DNA of 32,000 nt from Candidatus Saccharibacteria bacterium oral taxon 488 (GCA_010202845.1 CP047921.1:750001-782000); one strand, 5' to 3'; shown: positions 3,075-30,500, counted from the first letter of the stretch. Numbers and translations: made by a program. The notes: generated by a model not told the origin, from the sequence alone.

Positions 3075-3150
3075 TGGTGGGGGTGGCTGGGATCGAACCA
3101 GCGACCAACAGGTTATGAGCCCGCTGCTCTAACCGCTGAGCTACACCCCC
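3075..3150 (-). tRNA. tRNA with CAT anticodon: elongator Met or lysidine-dependent Ile2, CCA encoded
   Basis: The reverse complement is GGGGGTG TA GCTC AGCGGTTA GAGC A GCGGG CTCATAA CCTGT TGGTC GCTGG TTCGATC CCAGC CACCCCC ACCA. All seven acceptor pairs are Watson-Crick, so it is not an initiator. The variable and T arm (TTGGTCGCTGGTTC..CCAGC) resembles E. coli ileX as I recall it. TATAAT (revcomp of 3159-3164) lies about 9 nt upstream. Confidence 0.9.
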
Positions 3151-7246: not shown

Positions 7247-8316
7247 TAGTTTTCTCCTTCTTTTACTTTCTCCCGAACCTTCTGGTCAACTTCCGCCAGA
7301 ACCTCAGGATGTTCTTTCAGATACAACTTAGTTTTATCACGGCCTTGACCAATGGTCTCGCCGTTATATTTGTAAAAGGCGCCAGATTTTTCAACAATGC
7401 CGTGCGTGGCTGCCAAATCCAGAATATCGCCAGTTTTAGAGATGCCTTCATTATACATAATGTCAAACTCAGCGATGCGGAATGGCGGCGCAATCTTATT
7501 TTTCACCACCTTGATCTTGGTACGGTTACCGAGGATATCATCGCCAACCTTGATCTGCCCAATCCGGCGAATATCTACCCGCTGCGAGGCGTAAAACTTC
7601 AGCGCGTTACCACCCGTCGTGGTCTCCGGATTGCCAAACATCACGCCAATCTTCATGCGAATCTGGTTGATGAAAATCACCGTGGCTTTCGACTTGTTGA
7701 TGATACCAGTCAATTTACGCAGTGCCTGACTCATCAGCCGCGCCTGCAGGCCCATGTGAGAATCACCCATATCGCCGTCAATTTCTGCCTGCGGTGTCAG
7801 CGCTGCCACCGAATCCACCACGATGAGATCTACCGCATTTGAGCGCACCAAGGTTTCAGTAATCTCCAGCGCTTGCTCACCGTTGTCCGGCTGCGATACC
7901 AACAGATTTTCCGTATCGACACCCAACCGCTTGGCGTAGGCCGGGTCAAGCGCGTGCTCAGCGTCGATGAACGCTGCCGTGCCGCCCTGCTTTTGGATTT
8001 CGGCGATAGCGTGTAGTGTCAACGTTGTCTTACCTGAACTTTCCGGGCCGTAAATCTCAATAATGCGGCCTTTCGGGTAACCGCCGCCCAATGCCAAATC
8101 GAGGCTTAGCGAGCCCGACGGAATCACCTCAACGTCAACTTTGTGCGCTTCGCCCAGCTTCATAATCGAACCATCACCAAACTGCTTGGTGATCTGATCC
8201 ATGGCCAGGCCCAATGCCTTTAATTTACCATTATCAATCTTTTTTTCTGGCGCCTGAGCCGTGCCAGTTGCGGCGTCTGTTTGGTGTTTATTATCGGTTT
8301 TCGCTGCGCTAGCCAT
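7246..8316 (-). CDS. recA: recombinase RecA
   Basis: 356 aa with Walker [14 protein letters not shown] and canonical RecA sequence throughout ([48 protein letters not shown]). A GGAGGGAG Shine-Dalgarno and TGGTATACT lie upstream. Confidence 0.98.
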
Positions 8317-14687: not shown

Positions 14688-15059
14688 TTACAGCGTCGTA
14701 TCCTTTTTATAATTTTTCTTAGCCTCTAGCAAGCGGCGATTTTGTTCAACTTTATCTTTGATCTCAAAAATTTCAACTGGATACTTTTTATCTAGTTTGG
14801 CAATCTTTGCAGCAACCGCTTCAGGAATATTGATATCAAATCGGTCGGCAAATTGAATCGCATAAATAATGATGTCGGCCAGTTCGCTTGCCATGTCGTC
14901 TTTGGTACCAATATGCGTATCGCTCCACTGAAAATACTCTAATAATTCATTAGCCTCCAATGATAACGAAATTGCCAAACCACGCGAACTCTTCGTCTTA
15001 TTCCACTGGCGAGCACAGACGTGGCTCATTACCAACTTTTGTACTTCTTCAAATGTCAT
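14688..15059 (-). CDS. MazG-like nucleotide pyrophosphohydrolase (dCTPase/DCTPP1-like all-alpha NTP-PPase)
   Basis: SLEANELLEYFQW...ELADIIIYAIQFADRFDINI matches the MazG-type EExxE...D helices. The start was set at the ATG at 15057-15059 (MTFEEVQ...) because AAGGAGA lies 6 nt upstream. The gene is markedly AT-rich. Confidence 0.75.
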   Translation of the reverse strand: MTFEEVQKLVMSHVCARQWNKTKSSRGLAISLSLEANELLEYFQWSDTHIGTKDDMASELADIIIYAIQFADRFDINIPEAVAAKIAKLDKKYPVEIFEIKDKVEQNRRLLEAKKNYKKDTTL

Positions 15060-15134
15060 GCTGTCTCCTTTATCTATTGTCACGTCTTATGGTGCTACTG
15101 ATAGCTCAGTCCCAACCCAGCCTCGCCAAAACTC

Positions 15135-16661
15135 TTACTTGACTAGTCGCAGCCGCTCAATCAACCAATCCCGCGGCAAAATTGACAAGAACCAGCCAGC
15201 GCGTGGGCCGGAATCTTTGCCAATGAGCACGCGGTAGATAGTGGTGAAGAGCTCCCGCGGCGGCAGCAAACCACTTTCCTTGTAGACGTAAATTGCTTGA
15301 TGAAACCAATTGCCGTCAGCTTCGGCTGGCGCCCCGGTGATATCGTCAGCTAATCGCCGCAGGTATTCTTTTTGCTCTGGCGAAAACTCATCGGGACGCA
15401 CCTCGTCCGCCAGGCGAAACTTCAATGATTCAGGCGCCCACTTTTCCAGCCACCGGCTGACGTAGCCTAGTTCCGTAATAATCACCGTCTCTTCCTCATC
15501 GACGATGCGGGCATATTCCGGACTGCGCCGCAAAATTTCTACCGTTTTTGCCGTGTCGCACAGCGCCGCTTGGTACGAAATGACTAGATGCGAGAAGGGA
15601 ATTGAGCTGACCGCTGGATGATTCAGCCCGTCAGTACACAGGAACAATAGCTGTTCGTCGAGCTCATTTTGCGGATGCTGCTTCATCGCCGCGAAGTCGT
15701 CAACCAGCCGCACCAGGCTATCGGTCTCGTCAAAATACAGTCGCTTGGCCGGCGAATATCGAAGGATAAAGTAGCGCACTACCTCAGGCGGCAACATATC
15801 GACAACATCATGCGCGTTCACGCCAGTGCCCTTGCTGGCACTCATCTTTTTGGTATCACCGGTGCGATTGATAAAGTCGTACGGCACCGGTACTGGCGCA
15901 TCAATGTCATAAACCTCGCGGGCAATCCGCTTGCCAGTATCATACGAGCCGCCCTTTGTCGCGTGATCACGACCAAACGGCTCAACATCAACACCGAGCA
16001 GCCACCACCGCCCCGGCCAGTCCAGCCGCCAGTCCAGCTTTACCTGCCCGTCGTCGTACCGGATTGTATGCTCTGAGTCATCATGGCTACGATAGGTAAT
16101 CGTTTTAGCATCGCTATCCATGCTGATAAATCGGCGATTTTTCAGCCGACCATGCTCCATAATCTGAATCGGCGACCACTGATCATTCAGCTGCCGGCCC
16201 GATACTTCCTGGATGGCGGATTTGGCCTTGTCGATACGGCTCAGCGAGCGCTCAATGGCCGGTACAAAAAACCCGCTCCGATATTTATCGCTAGCATAGA
16301 TCACGTCCATGGTGACGCCAATTTTATCAGCACTGTCGAGAAATGGCTTCAGGCAAAAATCCCCCCACGAATCGTACCGATCATCTGGTGATGGCACCGT
16401 GCAAAGCGGCATACCCAAGTACTGCTCATAACTAGCTGGCAAATTAACCGGCACCTTACGAAAGGCGTCCAGGTTATCCGAAACATGAACGTGGCGCGCC
16501 CGAATGCCTGCTTGCTTCAGCGCCCACACTACGGCGTCAGCGATAACGATTTCGCGCAAATGCCCCACATGATACACCCCCGACGGCGATGCGCCCGAGG
16601 AAACGAGCACCTCTTTATCCACATTTCGAAACTGATCTACGATATCATCAAGCCATTTCAT
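15135..16661 (-). CDS. lysK: lysyl-tRNA synthetase, class I
   Basis: 508 aa. It has a class I signature SPSGVYHVGHLREI (HIGH-type) and KMSASKG (KMSKS). The length and layout fit class I LysRS rather than the class II enzyme. Confidence 0.9.
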   Translation of the reverse strand: MKWLDDIVDQFRNVDKEVLVSSGASPSGVYHVGHLREIVIADAVVWALKQAGIRARHVHVSDNLDAFRKVPVNLPASYEQYLGMPLCTVPSPDDRYDSWGDFCLKPFLDSADKIGVTMDVIYASDKYRSGFFVPAIERSLSRIDKAKSAIQEVSGRQLNDQWSPIQIMEHGRLKNRRFISMDSDAKTITYRSHDDSEHTIRYDDGQVKLDWRLDWPGRWWLLGVDVEPFGRDHATKGGSYDTGKRIAREVYDIDAPVPVPYDFINRTGDTKKMSASKGTGVNAHDVVDMLPPEVVRYFILRYSPAKRLYFDETDSLVRLVDDFAAMKQHPQNELDEQLLFLCTDGLNHPAVSSIPFSHLVISYQAALCDTAKTVEILRRSPEYARIVDEEETVIITELGYVSRWLEKWAPESLKFRLADEVRPDEFSPEQKEYLRRLADDITGAPAEADGNWFHQAIYVYKESGLLPPRELFTTIYRVLIGKDSGPRAGWFLSILPRDWLIERLRLVK

Positions 16662-16802: not shown

Positions 16803-16874
16803 CTACTCCCACCGAAACAGCTTGATCGCGGCGATGTAGATAACGACAATCCACACAGCAAAGGCACCTATGCG
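16803..16874 (-). pseudogene. remnant of the last 23 codons plus stop of an ABC-2 permease gene
   Basis: My minus-strand translation is RIGAFAVWIVVIYIAAIKLFRWE*. The C-terminus of the intact permease (19947-21065) is QIGAVAAWTLVIYVAAIKLFRWE*, so 16 of 23 residues are identical. A 20-nt identical run, TACTCCCACCGAAACAGCTT, occurs at 16804-16823 and 19948-19967. An in-frame stop lies a few codons upstream, so this is not a gene. Confidence 0.75.
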
Positions 16875-17012: not shown

Positions 17013-17912
17013 ATGGAATTTCGTCAGTACAAGACAGATTTAGTAAGAGAGGGCTTAATGCCCGAAGACAGTCAGGTTGTTTCTACAAATAATAAACTGG
17101 TTGCGATATCTCCTGAACAGGGTGTTGTTTATAGAGTCAGTAAAGCTGCTGGTTCTAACCTCAGGGACGACCCCCACGACTTGGGGTATTCTCATAGGGT
17201 ATCTTGGTATGCTGCCCAGGAGGCTCCCGTAGTTTCTCCCCTTGATAGAGAACCACTAACTGCTAAAGGTTATGTCATATCAAGATACCCTTTAATGATA
17301 GGTGACGTGCATTTAAGCGAAAACAATGCTGACGAGATATTCACAATGACTCAGCGCATCAGCAGTTCCTTAAGTACGGTTTCAGACAATATGATGTTGC
17401 GTTCACTTAATATCCCGGAATATGTAGGGAGTCGCATAGAGGACCTCGAGGGCAAAAAGATATCTCATCCGGGTGATCTTGATTATATTAGAAGAGAGCT
17501 AACTGCGCTACAGCACTCTTTCCCCTTCTCTGAATTAACTAAAGATGATACAGGTCTCATACATGGTGATTTTAAAATAGAAAACATTGTCTCAGATGCA
17601 AAAGGCAATTTAAGGGCTATAGATCTTGACGCTGCCGCCGTTGGGCCTAGACTATACGACCTATCATCTTGGAGATTGCGACAAGAATTAGGCGATAAAA
17701 CACCCGTAGAATCTGTTATTGAAATTGCGCGCAAAAAGGAAAAATGGAACGATGATTACTATAAAGCGCTTATAGGCTGGAAAGCCGTTTCTTCAATGAG
17801 CTTTACCTTAAGATATGAAGACGAACAGACTAGCCACCGCAAGATCAATGAGATAGCTAGAGCTGCTATAAAATTAGGCGGTTTACTACATCATACGGAA
17901 CCTGAGGTGTAA
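17013..17912 (+). CDS. phosphotransferase of the APH / choline-kinase (eukaryotic-like kinase) family
   Basis: 299 aa. The catalytic loop is LIHGDFKIENIV (HxDxxxxN) and the metal-binding segment is AIDLDAAAVG (IDxD, the DFG equivalent). A GAGAGG Shine-Dalgarno lies upstream. Confidence 0.75.
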   Translation: MEFRQYKTDLVREGLMPEDSQVVSTNNKLVAISPEQGVVYRVSKAAGSNLRDDPHDLGYSHRVSWYAAQEAPVVSPLDREPLTAKGYVISRYPLMIGDVHLSENNADEIFTMTQRISSSLSTVSDNMMLRSLNIPEYVGSRIEDLEGKKISHPGDLDYIRRELTALQHSFPFSELTKDDTGLIHGDFKIENIVSDAKGNLRAIDLDAAAVGPRLYDLSSWRLRQELGDKTPVESVIEIARKKEKWNDDYYKALIGWKAVSSMSFTLRYEDEQTSHRKINEIARAAIKLGGLLHHTEPEV

Positions 17913-17915
17913 TTT

Positions 17916-18689
17916 ATGAATGAGATTATCTTACAACAAAAAGAAATTATTCGAATATTTACAGAATCCCGTCAAGAGCTAATGCAGTCTTATGGCAATA
18001 TAACGTACGATAGTAAACAGGATAAATCGCCAGTAACCGAACTTGATATTAAAGTCGAGAAAACTGTCAAGGAACAAATTATGGCTCAGTTTCCTGATGT
18101 AGGTATTCGAGGCGAAGAGACGACAGCTGTTAAACCAAAGAATGGTGTAACTTGGTATCTCGACCCTATAGACAGCACACTAAGTTTCATCCATGGCCTT
18201 CCATATTGTTCAAACATGGCTGCTTGTGTTGTCGATGGTGAAGTTGTAGCAAGTGTCATATATCATTTTGCAACGGATGAAATATTCACGGCCATAAGGG
18301 GGCACGGCGCTTATAAAAATAACGTTAAAATTTCTATTCATGACATCCCTCTAGCAAGTTCTTGTGTTTTTGCTGATGCCTTTGCTTATAAAAATATCTA
18401 CGCTTTATATGCCAAAGAGGATGTACGATTCTATGCGCCAGTCGGTGCAACTGGCTACTTCATGGCACTACTAGCCCAAGGTAGTATACAAGGAATTTGC
18501 TACGCAACTGCCAACCTAAAGCCACATGACGTAGCGCCAGGTGTGCTGCTTGTTCAAGAGGCGGGCGGTAAATTCGTATCATTCAACGACAGGCCATTCA
18601 ACTACGAATCGCGACAATTCTTTGCTAGCACACCAACGCTGTGTCAGTTGACGAAGCAAAAATTGCAGAAAATAAAAAAATTAATGTAG
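17916..18689 (+). CDS. inositol monophosphatase (IMPase/FBPase/CysQ) family phosphatase
   Basis: 257 aa with the motifs IRGEE, WYLDPIDSTLSFIHGLP (DPIDxT) and HDVAPGVLLVQEAGG. The gene starts 3 nt after the kinase stop, with a GAGGTG Shine-Dalgarno. Confidence 0.8.
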   Translation: MNEIILQQKEIIRIFTESRQELMQSYGNITYDSKQDKSPVTELDIKVEKTVKEQIMAQFPDVGIRGEETTAVKPKNGVTWYLDPIDSTLSFIHGLPYCSNMAACVVDGEVVASVIYHFATDEIFTAIRGHGAYKNNVKISIHDIPLASSCVFADAFAYKNIYALYAKEDVRFYAPVGATGYFMALLAQGSIQGICYATANLKPHDVAPGVLLVQEAGGKFVSFNDRPFNYESRQFFASTPTLCQLTKQKLQKIKKLM

Positions 18690-18759
18690 TATAGACGCGC
18701 AAAGACTAGTGCCCCACTATCTTTTTAACAGCCGATATTTGCCTTCTTAGCATCCTAGT

Positions 18760-19200
18760 CTACACAATCCACCTAAAATATGGCCTTTTTATTAAAACTA
18801 ACAGACGACGGTCTTTATGATCAAGTCTTAAGAGGTGTGTGTGATAATGATACACGCTTCGTGTCGTAGACAAAGGAGATCTTGTATAGATATTATATCC
18901 CTTGGCTTCATAACCCTCAAGAAGAGCAATATACTCTAGCTTAGCTTCGTCACTAAAGTCCGCGAGCTTTCCAGCATGTCTTTTCGGTATAATCATCAAG
19001 TGATCAATTACCCCCTGTCCATCCCATAAGGAATAGGGAAATTTGTTTCTAATAACCCTAAGATTACGAGTCTCGGTAATATTTTGATAGTGACCCTTAG
19101 TGATTTTACAAAAATCACAAGTTTGATCGTTTTTGTACTTCTTGTCTTTTGAGAATTTTACATAACTCCTCTCTTGACGAGTTGATCGAGGAGCTGTCAT
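18760..19200 (-). CDS. HIT (histidine triad) family nucleotide hydrolase/transferase
   Basis: 146 aa with CDFC, RNKFPY, HLMIIPKRH and the triad HYHTHLL. The NKFPY-type motif resembles the nucleotidyl-transferase (Ap4A phosphorylase/GalT-like) branch. Confidence 0.75.
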   Translation of the reverse strand: MTAPRSTRQERSYVKFSKDKKYKNDQTCDFCKITKGHYQNITETRNLRVIRNKFPYSLWDGQGVIDHLMIIPKRHAGKLADFSDEAKLEYIALLEGYEAKGYNIYTRSPLSTTRSVYHYHTHLLRLDHKDRRLLVLIKRPYFRWIV

Positions 19201-19207
19201 AAATATA

Positions 19208-19843
19208 CTACCCTATTCCCTTTCTAATTTGCGTAGAAGATATGTCGTTATCCATATTCTTTCTACCCGTAACTATCAATCTATTATCATTAAAAGCCGC
19301 TGAAGCCCACGACTCTGATCTTATACAGAATTCCGATATATGTTCCCTTCCTGGACGAATAACACATACCGCACGACCGCCATTAGATAGATGCTCTCTC
19401 ATGCTAGGTAATTGATCCGATCCAACTACGAAGAACAATCTACAGGAGGCAATACCTAAACATTGCTCTATAGTTTTGGGAACATAATCATTTATCTGGT
19501 CTATCCCTGCAGCCGGCCCCGATAGATCATCAACATAAGTTGGAGTACAATCTATTGCTGGTAGAGAAAGGATTCTGTGTACTCTCTCATCGTAAGGCCA
19601 TCCACCCTGCCCACCGCCCAACTTATCTATAACATATTCAGAACTATTAGGCGTAACTACCAGTGCTTCTACGGCCACTCCCTTAGCGATTAGCGCATGT
19701 TTTGCTGAAGTAATTGCATCAATATGACCGTCGTGTATTGGAGCAAAAGAACCAACCATAATAACCGCACCAAAGTTAGAAATATCTGTACTTAAATGCG
19801 AATCAACACCCGAAATTCTCTCTATCGTATCTATATTCGTCAT
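19208..19843 (-). CDS. NadD/NMNAT-like nucleotidyltransferase (HxGH cytidylyl/adenylyltransferase superfamily)
   Basis: The motifs are GSFAPIHDGHID (GxFxPxHxGH), VVGSDQL, VIRPG and a C-terminal ISSTQIRKG (ISSTxxR). The start was set at the ATG at 19841-19843 (MTNIDT...). The TTG at 19900 in the ORF track is less likely. The gene's stop is 7 nt upstream of the HIT gene's start. Confidence 0.75.
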   Translation of the reverse strand: MTNIDTIERISGVDSHLSTDISNFGAVIMVGSFAPIHDGHIDAITSAKHALIAKGVAVEALVVTPNSSEYVIDKLGGGQGGWPYDERVHRILSLPAIDCTPTYVDDLSGPAAGIDQINDYVPKTIEQCLGIASCRLFFVVGSDQLPSMREHLSNGGRAVCVIRPGREHISEFCIRSESWASAAFNDNRLIVTGRKNMDNDISSTQIRKGIG

Positions 19844-19946
19844 AACTTTTGTACAATTAAAGTACTTACTTGAAATAAAATCAACTACTTTTTGCCACAA
19901 CTAACATATATTTATAACAATATCACGAAGCATGATATTCTGCCAA

Positions 19947-21065
19947 TTACTCCCACCGAAACAGCTTAATCGCAGCGACATAGATAACGAGAGTCCAGGC
20001 AGCGACAGCGCCGATTTGCGGCAGGGCCTCGATAAAACTGGCATGCTCAGTCATGATCAAACGGAAACCATCAGTAATCGGCGTCATCGGGATAAACTGG
20101 GCGGCACCGCGTAACCACTCTGGGAACATGTACAGCGGGAAGAATGCACCAGACAAGAACATCATCGGGAAAGAGAGTAAGTTGCTCAGCGGTGCGGACT
20201 GATTTTCATTCTTTGCCCAGCCACCGATCATGAGACCCATACCTACCATCATAAAGGCCGCCAGCACCGCCATAAGGACAAAGAGCCCCCAATCGCCGCG
20301 CATATTAAATTGGAACATCAACATGCCAACGACAACCATCATAGTCAGGCTAAGCAGCGAAATAATCGTGTAGTGAATCGCCATAGAAATAATCAGCTGA
20401 CCCGAGGTAAACGGCGCCGCGCGCAGTCGGCGGTAGGAGCCACGCTGTTTTTCGGCCGGCATCTGGTTGGCCAGACCAAATATGCCCATACTCATCAAAC
20501 TAAATGCCAACAGTCCAGTGAATGTATAGTCAAATGGCTTCAACCGCTCGTCGCCGACAGCTTTACCAGCAGCCTTGAGCGGCGCCTCTGGCTGACCCAA
20601 ATGCTTATTTATTTCATTGGCAATCTGATTCATCACCGCAGTTAAGGCGCTACCAGTTTGCTCGGAGCCTTTTGCGTACAAGACATTGATAGTGCCAGTC
20701 GGGCGAGCATCCCTGCCCTCACCCTTCACTTTGCCAAAATCGCTTGGTAGTTCAATGATGCCGTTCAGTTCCGAACGCTTCATCTTCTCGCGAGCCTCGT
20801 CCATATCCTTGACATCTTTGATTTTAAGAATCGAGTCTTTGGCATTGTCTTTGGCGCCTTTGACGAAATTTTTAGCAAATTCTGTCTGCGAATTATTGAT
20901 AATCGCGATGTCAAAGCTGGTCGATTGATTATTAAAAATCGAACCGAATACCAACAAAAAGATGAGCGGAAACAGGAAGGTAAAGAATAGCGACATTTTA
21001 TCGCGGATGAAACGTTTTTGTTGGGCGCGTACTTGCCCGAATACACCAGTCCAATATTTTTTCAT
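19947..21065 (-). CDS. ABC-2 type transporter permease
   Basis: 372 aa with an N-terminal TM, a large extracytoplasmic loop and five C-terminal TM helices, typical of ABC-2/YadH-like exporters. It starts 1 nt after the ATPase gene. Confidence 0.85.
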   Translation of the reverse strand: MKKYWTGVFGQVRAQQKRFIRDKMSLFFTFLFPLIFLLVFGSIFNNQSTSFDIAIINNSQTEFAKNFVKGAKDNAKDSILKIKDVKDMDEAREKMKRSELNGIIELPSDFGKVKGEGRDARPTGTINVLYAKGSEQTGSALTAVMNQIANEINKHLGQPEAPLKAAGKAVGDERLKPFDYTFTGLLAFSLMSMGIFGLANQMPAEKQRGSYRRLRAAPFTSGQLIISMAIHYTIISLLSLTMMVVVGMLMFQFNMRGDWGLFVLMAVLAAFMMVGMGLMIGGWAKNENQSAPLSNLLSFPMMFLSGAFFPLYMFPEWLRGAAQFIPMTPITDGFRLIMTEHASFIEALPQIGAVAAWTLVIYVAAIKLFRWE

Positions 21066-21066
21066 A

Positions 21067-21831
21067 CTAATCCCGAATCGCCTTTCCTGTTAAATCAATA
21101 AATACGTCCTCCAAATTGGCCTGCTCGACAACTTGCTTTTTCTTAAAACCGCGCGCCAGTAGTTGCTGGATCAGATTATGTGGCGTATCAATGGTGATGA
21201 TTTTACCGTTGTCCATAATCGCCAAGCGATCGCACAGCAGCTCGGCCTCGTCCATATAATGCGTGGTCAGCACGATAGTAATACCTTCATCGCGAATCTC
21301 TTTGATCAAATCCCATAAATTGCGGCGCGCCTGCGGATCCAGCCCAGTGGTCGGCTCGTCAAGGAATAGCACCGTTGGGTTATTAACCAGCGTCGACGCG
21401 ATGGCGAAGCGCTGCTTTTGCCCGCCCGAGAGCTGCTCGACGTAGCTTTTGGCTTTGTCGGTCAATTGCACCTTGGCCAGCAGCGCGTCAGCGTCGACCG
21501 TTTGGCCGTACAGGCTGGCAAACATTTTCAATTGTTCACGCAAGGTTAGTTTGTCGTAAAACGTTGTCGATTGCAGCTGGATACCAATGATGTTTTTAAT
21601 GTGCTTCGGCTGCTTGGCAACATCAATTCCGTCGATAGTCGCCGTGCCGCCATCAATCGGCCGGAGCGCCTCCAGCATCTCGAGTGTTGTCGTCTTACCA
21701 GCGCCGTTGGGGCCGAGAATACCGAAGATCTCGCCTTTCTTGACCTCAAACGACACGCTATCGACGACATTCTTGCCATCGTACGTCTTGACGAGTTGGT
21801 CAACTGTTATGATTGGTTTGGGTTGAACCAT
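21067..21831 (-). CDS. ABC transporter ATP-binding protein (ABC-2/DrrA-type)
   Basis: Walker A is GPNGAGKTT, the signature motif is LSGGQKQR and Walker B is LFLDEPTTGLD, with an H-loop at TTHYM. A GGAG Shine-Dalgarno lies upstream. Confidence 0.92.
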   Translation of the reverse strand: MVQPKPIITVDQLVKTYDGKNVVDSVSFEVKKGEIFGILGPNGAGKTTTLEMLEALRPIDGGTATIDGIDVAKQPKHIKNIIGIQLQSTTFYDKLTLREQLKMFASLYGQTVDADALLAKVQLTDKAKSYVEQLSGGQKQRFAIASTLVNNPTVLFLDEPTTGLDPQARRNLWDLIKEIRDEGITIVLTTHYMDEAELLCDRLAIMDNGKIITIDTPHNLIQQLLARGFKKKQVVEQANLEDVFIDLTGKAIRD

Positions 21832-24360: not shown

Positions 24361-25314
24361 CTAACTCTTGATGCGCGTACCAGCGGCACCGTTGATAGCG
24401 TCAGCGGTTTTTTCGAGCGAGGTGATGATCGCCGTACGCCCCGAAGCGCCGGCCACAAAACTTAACGCCGCCTGGGTTTTCGGTAGCATTGAGCCAGCCG
24501 CAAACTGCCCAGCATCAATATGCTGCTGCAGCTCCTCGACCGATACCTCACCAAGTGACTGCTCTGTCGGCTGACCAAAATTGACCTTAGCTGCATCAAC
24601 CGACGTCAGGATCAGCAATGTATCCGCCCCGAGTGTGTCCGCCAGCTTGGCCGCACCAAAATCTTTGTCGATCACCGCCGCTACGCCGCTCAATTGACCC
24701 GACGCATCACGCAGTACCGGAATACCGCCGCCACCAGTCGAGACCACCAACACGCCGGCATCGACCAGCGCCTTGATGACGGGAGCCTCGACAATTTCCT
24801 GAGGCTTTGGTGATGGCACAACGCGCCGCCAACCACGGCCCGAGTCCTCGCGCACGGTATAGCCACGCTCGGCCTGTACCTTCTTGGCCTCTTCTTCTGA
24901 ATAAAATGGCCCAATTGGCTTGGTCGGATTTTGAAACGCTGGATCAGCCTGATCAACCACCGTCTGGGTAACGATGCTCGCTGCATACTTATCATGCACA
25001 CCACGAGTTGCCAGCGCATCGTGGATCGCTTGCTGCAACCAAAAACCAATTAGCCCCTGGCTCATCGCACCAGAATCTTCCAGCGGCAAGCTCGGCACCG
25101 CCTCGGTGTTAATCGCCTCCTCGTGTAGGACAATGTTGCCGACCTGCGGGCCATTACCGTGGACAATGGCTACGCGGTGGCCGGCTTGAATCAGCGGCAG
25201 AAGCTGGGCGATGGTTTCGTCGGCCACTCGCTGCTGCGCCTGGGACGAGGCCTCGCCCTGACGTTGCAGGGCGTTACCTCCAAGCGCGACGACAATAGTT
25301 CGCTGCTGATTCAT
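24361..25314 (-). CDS. arcC: carbamate kinase
   Basis: 317 aa with IVVALGGNAL, HGNGPQVG, STGGGGIPV and VIDKD, canonical carbamate kinase motifs. The start overlaps the upstream stop as TAATG. Confidence 0.92.
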   Translation of the reverse strand: MNQQRTIVVALGGNALQRQGEASSQAQQRVADETIAQLLPLIQAGHRVAIVHGNGPQVGNIVLHEEAINTEAVPSLPLEDSGAMSQGLIGFWLQQAIHDALATRGVHDKYAASIVTQTVVDQADPAFQNPTKPIGPFYSEEEAKKVQAERGYTVREDSGRGWRRVVPSPKPQEIVEAPVIKALVDAGVLVVSTGGGGIPVLRDASGQLSGVAAVIDKDFGAAKLADTLGADTLLILTSVDAAKVNFGQPTEQSLGEVSVEELQQHIDAGQFAAGSMLPKTQAALSFVAGASGRTAIITSLEKTADAINGAAGTRIKS

Positions 25315-26900
25315 TAAGCAATGGCTCCGTATACCGTGATAGCTACGAGGCTAATTATCGCAAAGACCACCATGATTGGCATCGAGCGCTTCAACCATGC
25401 ACGGTACGACACGCCGGCTAGGGCCAGACCGCCCATCAATGAAGCAATGGTTGGCGCCATCATATTCAACAGACCCGATGCCGCGGCAAATGCGACAACG
25501 ATAATCTCCTTGCTAGAGCCGACTAGATCAGCCACCGGCGCAATGACTGGCATAGTTGCCGCCGCTAGACCTGATGATGACGGAATGATAAAGCTCATCG
25601 GCAAGTAGAAGATATAGGCGAGAATACCAACAAAGCTACCCGCACCCTTCAGGGCAGATTCGCCCCAGCTGATAATGGTGTCTTGGATGGCACCATTCTG
25701 CATCACCACGCCGACACCGGCGGCCACCGCAATGATCAGCGCCACACTCAGTAGATCGGCTGTACCCTTCAGGAAGGTGTCAACAACGAAGATTTCCTCT
25801 TTCTTGAATTGGCGATAATAAATCGCTGCGATAACTAAGGTTGACAACAGGAACAGGGTCGAGATCTCGTTGAAGTACCACTCACCAAATGGCAAGACAT
25901 GATCGAGACCCAAGATAGCACCAACGACCGGTAGCTCTGTAAACCATTTATGGATATCGGCGAACAGCGTGATCCCCCAGTTGCCCCACGGGATAAGCGA
26001 GATGATCATCAATAGGAAAGTGATGCCAAAGACCGCCATCACTGCTTTACGCGGACCGGTAAATTCTGGCACGTTGCTCATATCAAGTGCGGTGGTGGCT
26101 GGCTTATACCGAACATCATCTTTATACTTACCAGCCTTTACCTTTGACGCGTATCGCATGGTGAACACGATAGCCGCGACCAAACAGAGCAGCAAAATGA
26201 TTGATTGGAGACCCAATATATTACCGAGCGGCACGTCAGCCGACTTGGCAGCGATACCAGTTGAAAATGGGTTTAACGTTGAACCAAGCACACCAGTACC
26301 AGCACCCAGCACGATCACCATCACCGCAGTCATGGCGTTATAGCCAGCCGCCATCATGATCGGCACCACCAGCGCGTAAAACGCCACTGCCTCTTCCTGC
26401 ATGCCGTAGGTGGTACCACCGATAGCGAAGAACGTCATGAGAATTGGGATGAGCCATTTCTCCTTGCCCTTCATCTTACGCAGCATGGCACCCAGTGTCG
26501 CATCCAGTGCGCCAGTCTTCATCGTCACCCCGAGGAAGCCGCCGAGGATTAACACGAAGACGATGACGTCGAGCTTCTCACTCATGCCCTTGATCGGCGC
26601 AAGTGCTGCATCCCACAAACCTTGGCGGGAATCAGTGGTCGTCTCGGTGCCGTCATCGGCTTTTTTAGTAGTGATTTTATCAGTCTGTTTGTACGTACCA
26701 GCGATGCGCACTGTCTTTTCCGCATCATTTGGATCTGGTTTTGTGTTGTACACACCAGACGGGATAATCCACGTTAGGACCGCCATCAAGGCAATCACCA
26801 CAAACAGCACAGTAAAGGCTGAGGGCGAGCGCAGCTTTTTCTTAATTTTTTTCATTTTTTCTACCATGTCCGGAGCCTCCTTTACTCCTGTATTAGACAT
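25314..26900 (-). CDS. YfcC / DcuC-type (C4-dicarboxylate anaerobic carrier family) membrane transporter; putative arginine/ornithine exchanger by operon context
   Basis: 528 aa polytopic membrane protein whose overall sequence resembles the YfcC family. It is embedded between arcB and arcC with 0 and -1 nt spacers. Confidence 0.8.
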   Translation of the reverse strand: MSNTGVKEAPDMVEKMKKIKKKLRSPSAFTVLFVVIALMAVLTWIIPSGVYNTKPDPNDAEKTVRIAGTYKQTDKITTKKADDGTETTTDSRQGLWDAALAPIKGMSEKLDVIVFVLILGGFLGVTMKTGALDATLGAMLRKMKGKEKWLIPILMTFFAIGGTTYGMQEEAVAFYALVVPIMMAAGYNAMTAVMVIVLGAGTGVLGSTLNPFSTGIAAKSADVPLGNILGLQSIILLLCLVAAIVFTMRYASKVKAGKYKDDVRYKPATTALDMSNVPEFTGPRKAVMAVFGITFLLMIISLIPWGNWGITLFADIHKWFTELPVVGAILGLDHVLPFGEWYFNEISTLFLLSTLVIAAIYYRQFKKEEIFVVDTFLKGTADLLSVALIIAVAAGVGVVMQNGAIQDTIISWGESALKGAGSFVGILAYIFYLPMSFIIPSSSGLAAATMPVIAPVADLVGSSKEIIVVAFAAASGLLNMMAPTIASLMGGLALAGVSYRAWLKRSMPIMVVFAIISLVAITVYGAIA

Positions 26901-27890
26901 CTACAGCGTCAAAGCGATAACCGCTTTGATGGTATGCATACGATTTTCCGCCTGGTCAAAGACGATCGAATTTGGTGAGCGGAAGACGTCATCCGTCACC
27001 TCCATCGCCTCTAGCCCGAAATCGTCCCTGATGTGCTGGCCGGTCGTGGTCAACGCATCATGAAAGGCCGGCAAGCAGTGCATGAACTTGACCTCAGGAT
27101 TGCCGGTGAGGTTCAGCATGTCGCGATTAACCTGGAAGTGACGCAGCTGGTTGATGCGCTCAGCAAACTTATCCTCTTCGCCCATCGACACCCAGACATC
27201 GGTGTAAACGACATCAGCACCGCGCAGGGCTTCCTCAAAATTATCAGTGATAGTAATCCGCCCGTGGTTCTGGTGCGCCAGCTCATGCGCGTGATGGACG
27301 AGGCCCTCCTCAGGGAACAATTCACGCGGTGCCAAAATCCGAAAGTCCAGCCCCATAATCGCCGAGCCGAGCAGCAGGCTGTTAGCCATGTTATTGCGGC
27401 CATCGCCGACAAACACCAGCTTGACGCCGTGCAGCCGACCGAGGTGCTCCTCGATAGTCATAAAGTCGGCTAGAATCTGCGTTGGATGGAACTTATCAGT
27501 CAATCCATTCCATACTGGCACGCCGGCGTGCTTCGCTAGATCTTCTACCGTTTTGTGTGCAAAACCGCGAAACTCAATACCGTCAAACATCCGGCCCAGC
27601 ACCTTGGCGGTGTCCTCGACCGTCTCTTTCTTGCCAAGCTGAATATCGTCTTTACCGAGATATTCCGGCGCGATACCGAGGTCGTTGGCCGCCACCGTAA
27701 AGGCGCAGCGCGTCCGCGTCGAGGTTTTTTCAAACAACAACGCAATGTTCTTGCCCTCATGAATCCGATGCGGCGTACCGGCGTACTTCATCCGCTTATA
27801 TTCATTCGCCGTCGTTAGTAGCAACCGAATATCACCCGCAGTAAAATCACCCAGTGTTAGGAATGATCGCCCTTTCAAACTTTGTGCCAT
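26901..27890 (-). CDS. arcB: ornithine carbamoyltransferase (catabolic by context)
   Basis: 329 aa with STRTRCAF (carbamoyl-phosphate site), HPTQ, DVWVSMG and HCLPAFH motifs. Confidence 0.93.
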
Positions 27891-29126
27891 TTATACATCC
27901 TCCCGTACTAGCGGCATGCTCATACAGCGCGGACCACCACGGCCGCGGCCAAGCTCAGCGCCGCTGACTTCGATAACTTCAACGCCGTGCTCGCGCAATT
28001 TTTGGTTCGTCACATAGTTGCGGTCATACGTCACCACCACGCCCGGCGCAATTGCCAAGGTGTTCGAGCCGTCGTTCCACTGCTCGCGGGCTGCTGCGAT
28101 CGGATCGCCGCCGCCACATTCGATCAAGGTAACGCTCGGCAGCCCCAAGGCCACTCGCAAGACATGTTCGAGATCCGTCTCATGCGTAATGCGCGGGAAC
28201 GGCTGTCCCTCAACCTTTTCCAATACGAAACAATTCATCTTGCCGCCGCGGTCGCGGATTTCCGGATGAATAGTAAACTTGTCCCGATCAATCATGGTAA
28301 ACACCGTATCCAGGTGCATAAAGGCGTGCGACTTCGGAATCTCCATAGCAACGACTTTCTTAAAGCCAGAGCCAGCAAACAGTTTCGTCGCCATCTTTTC
28401 AATTGCCTCAGCCGTGGTGCGCTCCGATACGCCGATGGCCATCACTTCACTGCTCAACACTAGCTCATCGCCACCTTCAATTGAGAATTTTTCATGGCGA
28501 TCATACCACACCGGCACATTCTTGCCGGCAAACCGTGGATGATGATCAATGATGTAGCGCATGAATAGCGACTCTCGACGACGCGCCGGCCAGTGCATCT
28601 TGTTGATCGTCAGACCGTGACCAATGGTTGCAGCCGGGTCACGCGTAAAGTACAAGTTCGGCATCGGATCGAGATAGAATGGATAGTGATTTTTCTCGAT
28701 CATATTGTGCAGCTGCTGGTGCTGATCTGGCGGCAGCGTAATCTCGTCCTTGCGCACACCGGCCATAATTTTACGCACCATCGCGTTCGTTGGCAGGTCC
28801 AGCAGGAACTGGCGCAGCACTCTGGTAACACGGCGCGAGCCTTGCTTCGAATTTGCCAACATTTCATCAACAAACTGCTCACGTAATTGATCAGTATATA
28901 GCGCCTCGGTCACCAGCTGATCGAGATACAACACCTCGACACCGTGATCACGCAATACCTGAGCAAACGCATCATGCTCCTTTTGGGCGACCTGCAAATA
29001 CGGAATGTCGTCAAACAGCAGATCAGTCAAGTAGTCTGGTGTTAAGTTTTCTAATTCTTCGCCCGGACGATGCAATAGCACCGCCTTGAGTCGGCCAATT
29101 TCTGATGTAATATGTAATGGATCCAT
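27891..29126 (-). CDS. arcA: arginine deiminase
   Basis: 411 aa with [17 protein letters not shown] at the N-terminus, FTRD, MHLDTVF and the C-terminal catalytic [10 protein letters not shown]. Confidence 0.95.
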
Positions 29127-30423: not shown

Positions 30424-30500
30424 CGGGGTGTGGCGCAGCTCGGTAGCGCGCACCGTTCGGGACGGTGAGGTCGTCCGTTCAAATCGGATCACCCCGACCA
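30424..30500 (+). tRNA. tRNA-Pro (anticodon CGG), CCA encoded
   Basis: It folds by hand as CGGGGTG TG GCGC AGCTCGGTA GCGC G CACCG TTCGGGA CGGTG AGGTC GTCCG TTCAAAT CGGAT CACCCCG ACCA. TATACT at 30407-30412 lies upstream. Confidence 0.92.

Follow-up and report, generated by a model that had tools for sequence, protein, structure and literature searches.

We describe here a cassette of four genes in a 32,000-nucleotide stretch of the genome of Candidatus Saccharibacteria bacterium oral taxon 488 (GCA_010202845.1, CP047921.1:750001-782000; the whole stretch is referred to as the window), encoding an APH-type kinase, an IMPase-family phosphatase, a HIT protein and an HxGH nucleotidyltransferase (NT). 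That the cassette is a functional unit is firmly supported, its core being a kinase followed by an NT of the NMNAT fold, for which conversion of a compound X to X-P and then to NMP-P-X (NMP, nucleoside monophosphate) is predicted. The support is likewise firm for the conserved companions of this core, a predicted phosphomonoesterase and a predicted nucleotide-pyrophosphate hydrolase.

The four genes and their conserved linkage

The kinase gene (17013-17912, plus strand; 299 aa), recognised as an open reading frame (ORF) with a match to Pfam APH, is followed after 3 nt by the IMPase-family gene (17916-18689, plus strand; 257 aa; ORF and Pfam Inositol_P). On the minus strand, the NT gene (19208-19843; 211 aa from an ATG start; Pfam CTP_transf_like, AlphaFold and Foldseek) lies 7 nt from the HIT gene (18760-19200; 146 aa; histidine triad and comparison of the family profile with the PDB). 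The two gene pairs converge, with 70 nt separating their stop codons, and the GC content is 0.405 in the cassette vs 0.52 in the remaining window. The initial annotation of this DNA had pointed out the four ORFs with these spacers and orientations, the catalytic motifs listed below for each enzyme and the foreign composition; all were found as described, and the four genes are intact. For the NT gene an alternative TTG start at 19900 would give 230 aa (ORF 19208-19900, minus strand). Exact matches to the 211-aa product stand on 23 public contigs, whereas the 230-aa form has none, and the majority of NT homologues begin at the Met of the shorter form; the ATG at 19843 is therefore probably the true start.

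The NT family is tiny and, among named genomes, restricted to Saccharibacteria. Homologue clusters among 5.8 billion numbered 35 for NT, 56 for HIT and 24 for the kinase, the few named matches all belonging to Patescibacteria/Saccharimonadales, and of 1.84 billion, 18 representatives reached E <= 1e-30 in an exhaustive HMMER search with the NT profile. When 185,579 species genomes were scanned, 7 true loci emerged, every one in Saccharibacteria; a metagenome scan contributed 20 more. The NT gene is thus accessory and not a widespread, vertically inherited nadD; the more ordinary explanation named in the initial annotation was that of the organism's sole, vertically inherited nadD. Identical copies of the cassette are carried by human oral metagenome contigs and by the metagenome-assembled genome 'uncultured Candidatus Saccharibacteria bacterium SRR23388465_bin.18', beside an arginine deiminase operon.

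Architectures were defined by tblastn and clustering of neighbouring genes over 20 non-redundant loci, among which NT is present in 20, the APH kinase in 16, HIT in 12, IMPase in 9, a GT2 glycosyltransferase in 8 and DUF6270 in 7-8. Type A, comprising APH, IMPase, NT and HIT, occurs in the oral clade and also in six distant lineages, where identity is 45-60% and the flanks are unrelated; its gene pairs are convergent in the window, divergent at loci L021, L024, L041 and L042 and co-directional at L023 and L027, and the APH-IMPase and NT-HIT pairs are unbroken in every distant lineage. Because six other lineages keep the adjacency at this level of identity with flanks and orientations changed, the four-gene linkage is not attributable to chance. 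The neighbourhood check that the initial annotation had proposed thus turned out positive, and the scattered housekeeping homologues lacking conserved linkage, which it had named as the outcome that would speak against a unit, were not what we found. Gene order shows the cassette to be built of two conserved bicistronic modules, APH kinase with IMPase and NMNAT-fold NT with HIT. At L024 a degraded second NT copy, in two fragments of 36-43% identity (7264-7660), lies directly downstream of the HIT gene.

Type B, with the order NT-GT2 glycosyltransferase-APH-DUF6270, occurs in about seven lineages at 36-59% identity. In the oral lineage successive genes of the operon share 4-14 bp, and a NUDIX gene stands on the opposite strand beside 7 of the 8 non-redundant Type B loci. 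At several loci, including L030, L045 and L048, the operon is AT-rich relative to its flanks (GC 0.40 vs 0.51 at L030), and since Type B shares this property with the cassette, it seems that in several genomes both types are mobile accessory DNA. DUF6270 gave no match in NCBIfam or the PDB, profile search included, and the literature is silent on it; an SGNH-like pattern was seen by eye only. Type C consists of NT and HIT with other partners. At L026, genes for a Gfo/Idh/MocA-type oxidoreductase and a DegT-type sugar aminotransferase lie 274 bp upstream of the NT-HIT pair; L044 carries NT and HIT with a NUDIX-like gene upstream; and L028 (1988-6768) is a one-strand operon of NT, a near-HisC aminotransferase (247 bits, HisC cutoff 277), a 433-aa protein, CYTH, an NDK-like protein and HIT. 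The 433-aa protein has no family match; we considered it as a phosphoribosyltransferase (PRT) on account of a PRT-loop-like IDDLFYRGRT, a candidacy that was dropped as neither BLAST nor the profile of the outgroup C-terminal domain (see below) detected it. CYTH genes are also located within 3-5 kb of the cassette at L024 and L026. Neighbour clustering gave no recurrent resistance, biosynthetic-core or regulatory gene with the cassette, and no PnuC-type transporter was detected in the cassette neighbourhoods looked at.

The kinase and NT families are also united in P0140 (L057, 5826-7559), where one polypeptide of 577 aa carries both an NT domain and an APH-kinase domain, the latter matching the profile of the cassette's kinase at E = 3e-24. 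Its contig has a GC content of 66%, with genes for Lsr2, a RES-domain protein and a large regulator-like protein as neighbours; no HIT, IMPase or glycosyltransferase gene lies near it on L057, where the fusion gene stands alone. P0140 is actinobacterial and a Rosetta-stone fusion for the kinase-NT core. The recurrence of the pair in the sibling Type B operon and as this fused protein shows kinase and NT to be the evolutionary core of the system.

Predicted activities of the four products

The kinase matches Pfam APH (PF01636) with 33.5 bits against a gathering threshold of 23.2. HGDFKIEN (residues 184-191) and IDLD (203-206) supply the HxDxxxxN loop and the metal-binding Asp, and H184, G185, D186, N191, D204 and D206 are invariant in 19-20 kinase homologues. 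Foldseek comparison of the AlphaFold model (pLDDT 89.9) with the PDB gave 627 matches at E <= 1e-3, and the 50 best, those listed, are all kinases of the APH/choline kinase (ChoK) fold. The best was the choline kinase LicA (E = 8e-10, TM 0.64), nearly tied with APH(9), AmiN, YihE, homoserine kinase and many other APH-fold kinases. In the PDB profile search only the catalytic loop was matched, and the NCBIfam subfamilies LicA, APH(3'), MTR kinase, CcrZ, CotS and homoserine kinase II gave 13-20 bits vs cutoffs of 172-400.

The phosphatase scores 143.6 bits vs 27 with Pfam Inositol_P (PF00459), and among PDB entries it is matched best by the Thermotoga IMPase/FBPase 2p3n (86 bits), with which the GEE, DPIDxT and EAGG motifs (GEE, WYLDPIDST and VQEAGG in the window) align; in the comparison with T. 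maritima 2p3n the second motif begins with His instead of Trp. CysQ-type structures score weakly, and the resemblance is a generic one to IMPase/FBPase/SuhB. Scores stayed below all NCBIfam equivalog cutoffs examined, with HisN as the best match (123/275 bits), followed by CysQ (87/229), FBPase/IMPase (85/264) and SuhB (67/332).

For the HIT protein, the initial annotation had taken the NKFPY motif, present together with HYHTHLL, as typical of the transferase branch. As a single sequence it gives 21.2 bits with Pfam HIT, slightly under the threshold of 21.5. The family profile detected the Hint/HIT hydrolases 6iq1 (E = 6.6e-9) and 5uvm (3.4e-7) in the PDB, whereas on the transferase side Ap4A phosphorylase 3ano reached E = 5.6e-3 and GalT E = 0.33-0.47. 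The motif is HxHxH and not the HxHxQ of the GalT/transferase branch, and H118, H120, H122, the C28/C31 pair (CxFC) and N52 are invariant in 32 homologues. Because of the hydrolase-type HxHxHxx motif and the far stronger Hint matches, we assign the protein to the Hint branch in place of the transferase branch, and predict that it is a Hint-like nucleotide hydrolase.

The NT matches Pfam CTP_transf_like with 28.4 bits against a gathering threshold of 21. With its AlphaFold model (pLDDT 87.6), the top 15 PDB matches in Foldseek were all NMNAT/NadD, including human NMNAT1 (1kqn; E = 2.5e-6, TM 0.69, 20% identity); PPAT appeared only at E ~0.03, and in a viral structure library the top matches were giant-virus NMNATs. 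GSFAPIHDGH (HxGH) and ISSTQIR (SxTxxR) correspond to the nucleotide-binding motifs of NMNAT/NadD, and human NMNAT1 and the NT have GSFxPI..H, CVxRxG and DISSTxIR in common. In the PDB profile search NadD was the closest family at a marginal E = 4e-3, and the NMNAT/NadD family profiles stayed well below their cutoffs (TIGR00482, 29 bits vs 112; others, 18-24 vs 150-315). The NadD/NMNAT-like assignment of the initial annotation therefore stands for fold and motifs, and fails for the family cutoffs and for the pyridine-contacting Trp residues considered next.

Alignment of the NT family with human NMNAT1 by hhalign covered the C-terminal half only, at a probability of 74%, so that the mapping of the pocket is partial. 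W92 and W169 of NMNAT1 (1kqn) are the contacts to the pyridine ring. In a joint alignment, the Trp of the DxW motif (W92) is retained in NMNAT1, in the phage-like outgroup described below and in the fusion clade of P0140, whereas in the Saccharibacteria NTs of Types A, B and C its equivalent is Ile, Leu or Val, with Trp in one. The W169 region is shortened in the NT family, with His/Tyr or Ser aligned there and no Trp. W82 is Trp in every Saccharibacteria member of the alignment and absent from the other groups. The replacement of the W92 equivalent where the outgroup keeps Trp, together with the shared W82, indicates a putatively remodelled second-substrate pocket in the Saccharibacteria NTs. 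Type B NTs retain all family-invariant residues, and are therefore probably of the same substrate class.

Outside the family, the closest relatives of the NT domain (E ~1e-16 to 1e-8) share a short GSDx...CVxRPG segment with it. They include about 55 proteins in which the NT domain is followed by a C-terminal domain with hhDDDxxxGxT, a motif resembling the phosphoribosyl pyrophosphate loop. This domain gave a single Pfam match (E = 0.015) and no PDB match, and is tentatively taken as a PRT. The set includes proteins of ~1,130-1,210 aa (among them P0155 on L061) combining NAD synthase, 2-oxoglutarate (2OG) oxygenase, NT and the PRT-like domain, and on phage-like contigs (L058, 4063-7416; also L059 and L060) NAD synthase, 2OG-Fe(II) oxygenase, a 53-aa ORF and the NT-PRT-like fusion follow one another in that order. 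The modules differ from the cassette in the PRT-like domain in place of a partner kinase, in the retained DxW and in the link to NAD synthase. As the outgroup is fused or adjacent to NAD synthase, the NT clade is, on this comparison, rooted in NAD-type chemistry, and the set may represent an uncharacterised viral NAD-synthesis module.

Insertion, exchange and surroundings of the cassette

The low-GC insert is bracketed by a 68-nt direct repeat, identified by repeat search, of which the left copy (16804-16871, minus strand) and the right copy (19948-20015, minus strand) are 81% identical. The right copy serves as the functional 3' end to an ABC-2 permease gene (19947-21065, minus strand), which is followed by an ABC ATPase gene (21067-21831, minus strand), both assigned by Pfam on an identical contig. 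The left copy translates to IGAFAVWIVVIYIAAIKLFRWE followed by a stop, matching the permease C-terminus, and tblastn lengthens this match to 40 aa at 52% identity. Since the right repeat is the permease end and the left one a displaced C-terminus, the cassette is deduced to have entered the end of the permease gene, with an incoming copy restoring that gene. The outer ~20 nt of the repeat are common to all oral lineages, even where the outer flank differs. Traits of a genomic island are thus present, namely deviating GC content and flanking repeats that duplicate the 3' end of the target gene; inside the insert, ORF calls and Pfam gave the four enzyme genes only, with no integrase, recombinase or transposase. 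On a JGI contig (L010, 1010-2266) the gene call joins a radical-SAM N-terminus to the upstream permease, and the left flank is different, the explanation being either rearrangement or chimeric assembly.

At L033, L035, L036 and L038-L040 the ABC genes stand ahead of the cassette. Placement behind an exporter operon, as noted in the initial annotation, therefore holds for the oral clade and not for the distant, non-oral cassettes, which lack the ABC genes as neighbours. Between lineages the ABC genes are far more diverged than the cassette. We considered the exporter as a component of the system and rejected it, the linkage being limited to the oral clade and the divergence much above that of the cassette; the permease and ATPase are probably outside its function.

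Between the window and L033, both of oral lineages, the APH-IMPase-HIT segment has 95-99% nucleotide identity (dS 0.06-0.10) and the NT segment 87-92% (dS 0.29), while the adjacent ABC genes have 70-80% with dS saturated. Because the cassette is near-identical while its flanking genes are not, this comparison is direct evidence, at the sequence level, for recent horizontal exchange of the cassette among oral lineages, probably by homologous recombination between related genomes. Across the cassette genes dN/dS is 0.06-0.27, from which the cassette is judged to be under purifying selection. In some oral lineages the kinase gene is disrupted or lost: the same frameshift near codon 53 is present in two separate assemblies (L039, 5882-6777; L040, 3411-4306), and at L036 the kinase is reduced by deletion to a 67-aa remnant, with none detectable at the related L035. 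The cassette is a genuine, conserved and compositionally foreign accessory unit, in support of the initial annotation, which had put it forward as the best candidate in the window for an undescribed accessory system. We also considered a defence or phage origin, and set it aside because matches in PADLOC and PHROGs were weak and generic only; PADLOC models gave no defence system among the cassette proteins, only a weak generic HIT match (ThsC, E = 3.5e-3) and a spurious Cas8c.

Just outside the insert are genes for a class I lysyl-tRNA synthetase (tRNA-synt_1f; 15135-16661, minus strand) and a MazG-like pyrophosphohydrolase (14688-15083, minus strand), of which the proximity to the HIT gene is confined to the lineage of the window and looks like coincidence. 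An arginine deiminase operon (24361-29126, minus strand; arginine deiminase, ornithine carbamoyltransferase, DcuC-type transporter and carbamate kinase, by Pfam on an identical contig) is a trait associated with mammal-associated Saccharibacteria. The window also has tRNA genes at 364-440, 3075-3150 and 30424-30500, of which two are tRNA-Met(CAT) and the other is tRNA-Pro(CGG), the latter being unreported by Rfam at its gathering threshold. Two ORFs at 469-909 (146 aa) and 1099-1872 (257 aa) equal the HIT and IMPase genes in length; as copies of these genes they were rejected, the sequences being unrelated.

Possible functions and related systems

The identity of X, the compound that is activated, we infer. 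The reading that we favour, tentatively and at a little under even confidence, is an accessory pathway that salvages a small hydroxyl compound and activates it as a nucleotide-linked donor of a sugar or alcohol, the pool being controlled by HIT. A scavenged sugar, polyol or glycoside would enter free, or have a misplaced phosphate removed by the IMPase-type phosphatase; the APH-fold kinase would phosphorylate it at the position to be activated; and the NT would join this phosphate to a nucleotide (AMP from ATP being probable), giving an NDP-linked, probably ADP-linked product. Surplus or off-pathway NDP-X would be hydrolysed or phosphorolysed by the Hint-like HIT protein. In Type B the product would be used in cis by GT2 and DUF6270 for decoration of an envelope glycan, with NUDIX in the role of HIT, while in Type A its consumer would be encoded elsewhere in the genome. 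We favour this route because its productive steps would explain both Types A and B, because the lost Trp fits and because HldE/GmhB and MupP-AmgK-MurU offer precedents for the mechanism. LicA as the best structural match of the modelled kinase lends it some support, and the GT2 and DUF6270 of Type B, the oxidoreductase and aminotransferase at L026, the conserved four-gene linkage, the P0140 fusion, the intact catalytic motifs and the purifying selection would also speak for it.

A number of observations weigh against the donor route. The fold relatives of the NT are exclusively NMNAT/NadD, with TagD, CCT/ECT and HldE absent from its significant matches in the PDB and the viral library, and its nearest outgroup is fused or adjacent to NAD synthase. 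Assignment of a kinase substrate from the fold match had to be given up, LicA being statistically tied with many APH-fold kinases. The Type A cassette contains no transferase able to consume an activated donor; the flanks of Type B are heterogeneous and were discarded as glycan evidence, which leaves the glycan case with the operon's own GT2 only; and the gap of 274 bp separates the oxidoreductase and aminotransferase genes of L026 from NT. HIT and IMPase are equally readable as plain reversals of the NT and kinase steps. Finally, oral lineages have lost the kinase on two occasions while keeping NT, HIT and IMPase intact (L035, L036, L039 and L040), and the kinase step is therefore dispensable there. 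A bolder form of the proposal, which we regard as doubtful, is that the NMNAT-fold NT, by virtue of its putatively remodelled pocket, makes a new Saccharibacteria-specific, ADP-linked and dinucleotide-like metabolite from a host-scavenged compound, neither NAD nor a known nucleotide sugar, which Type A would produce and recycle and Type B install in the envelope by means of GT2 and DUF6270.

The same NT relatives raise the main alternative, in our view somewhat less likely than the donor route, of NAD-type riboside salvage or homeostasis in a NAD-auxotrophic epibiont, the cassette setting the pool between nicotinamide riboside (NR), NMN and NAD. The APH-fold kinase would then be a non-orthologous nicotinamide or nicotinate riboside kinase, forming with the NT, as NMN/NaMN adenylyltransferase, an analogue of NadR; HIT would be a dinucleotide (NAD/Ap4A-type) pyrophosphohydrolase, as in NadM-Nudix or nadD-yqeK, and IMPase a NADP or NMN phosphatase. 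The uniformly NMNAT/NadD fold matches, the marginal profile match to NadD, the motifs shared with human NMNAT1 and the NAD synthase of the outgroup fusions and phage-like contigs all agree with this, as does P0140, which keeps the Trp and stands alone in the manner of NadR. NMNATs are known to work with kinases, Nudix enzymes or Ap4A hydrolases, partnerships that are all mirrored here. Saccharibacteria cannot make NAD de novo and depend on its salvage or import (PMC7786006), which also counts for a NAD role. Against it stand Type B, in which GT2 and DUF6270, proteins with no role in NAD salvage, are coupled translationally to these NT and kinase families; the loss of the W92-equivalent Trp in all Saccharibacteria NTs except one, with no Trp aligned to W169; the NadD/NMNAT cutoffs, missed widely; the rarity of the accessory cassette among species genomes; and the lack of a PnuC-type transporter in the neighbourhoods looked at. 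Moreover, all four proteins are cytoplasmic by eye, so that hydrolase and synthase together would run futile cycles. Reading (a) of the initial annotation, NAD or nucleotide salvage, and reading (b), a Kennedy-like route from kinase to HxGH enzyme, are thus the two that survive.

Its third reading, detoxification, gained no specific support. In the wider form of transient nucleotide tagging of a small molecule (an amino alcohol, an aminocyclitol or an antibiotic of the actinobacterial host), phosphorylated and nucleotidylated by kinase and NT, with HIT or NUDIX and IMPase later stripping off nucleotide and phosphate in a secondary-metabolite-like biosynthesis or detoxification, we consider it improbable. 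The kinase has the fold of the antibiotic kinases APH(9), AmiN and macrolide kinases, yet it reaches the cutoff of no named antibiotic-kinase subfamily. The NT and HIT of L028 bracket the near-HisC aminotransferase and its three neighbours, and the window's IMPase scores best with HisN, which follows HisC and acts on an amino-alcohol phosphate; the L028 arrangement, however, is confined to one lineage, and resistance, biosynthetic-core and regulatory genes do not recur with the cassette. A nucleotide handle is reportedly taken off by a Nudix enzyme in FR-900098 biosynthesis (FrbH/FrbI), while the nucleotidylating resistance enzymes known to us have a different fold. That four unrelated housekeeping genes adjoin by chance, with no joint function, is hardly credible: each protein does come from a very common superfamily and scores below every subfamily cutoff, but the families themselves are all tiny, clade-restricted and not housekeeping, the cassette transfers between lineages as a unit, and to this are added the linkage in six further lineages and the fusion of two of the families in P0140.

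The combination was not recognised as a described operon in the initial annotation, and the searchable literature on Saccharibacteria NAD metabolism, on teichoic-acid activation and on the four-enzyme combination likewise gives no account of it; no curated family names any of the four proteins. The combination is apparently new; in its logic it follows known kinase-nucleotidyltransferase schemes of salvage and activation, as a variant built from unusual folds. NadR, NadM-Nudix and nadD-yqeK resemble it in an NMNAT-fold NT with a substrate-making kinase and a nucleotide-pyrophosphate hydrolase, and the ATP-side motifs match. The cassette differs in its APH/ChoK kinase in place of a P-loop kinase, in HIT in place of Nudix or HD, in the added IMPase, in an NT below family cutoffs without the pyridine-contacting Trp and in a sibling operon with a glycosyltransferase. 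HldE-GmhB for ADP-heptose and MupP-AmgK-MurU for MurNAc salvage, the latter in the order phosphatase, anomeric kinase, nucleotidyltransferase, combine a kinase, a phosphatase for a second or misplaced phosphate and a nucleotidyltransferase to give an NDP-sugar; HldE is an HxGH-superfamily transferase fused to a kinase, comparable with P0140, and AmgK is an APH-fold anomeric kinase. The cassette, unlike these, pairs an APH-fold kinase (ribokinase-fold in HldE) with an IMPase-fold phosphatase (HAD-fold in GmhB and MupP) and an NMNAT-like NT (MurU is GlmU-like), and it alone has HIT; the sugar link would be one of logic, by analogy. In the Lic/Kennedy scheme (LicA, LicC or CCT, LicD) a kinase and then a nucleotidyltransferase activate a head group with which the surface is decorated, LicA is the top match of the cassette's kinase, and eukaryotic CCT/ECT are HxGH enzymes; the cassette's NT, in contrast, has NMNATs and not CCT/ECT/TagD as neighbours, no LicD or CDP-alcohol transferase is present, and IMPase and HIT are without counterpart.

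Saccharibacteria are ultra-small epibionts that obtain most metabolites from host bacteria. The cassette and its sibling operon are limited to this clade, evolve under purifying selection and move actively from one oral lineage to another, which suggests an adaptive trait of the epibiotic lifestyle. The module of NadE, 2OG oxygenase, NT and PRT-like domain in the phage-like relatives has a possible bearing on NAD replenishment by phages. If the product of the cassette is of NAD type, it would add a new fold for riboside kinases and would show a NAD auxotroph topping up its cofactor pool. If it is a nucleotide-linked donor, an enzyme of the NMNAT lineage would have been recruited to envelope glycan synthesis, and the surface so made could affect attachment to the host or susceptibility to phage. 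Should a new ADP-linked metabolite be made, this would be the first NAD-synthesis lineage recruited as a glycan-donor synthase, possibly by way of a captured actinobacterial kinase-NMNAT fusion.

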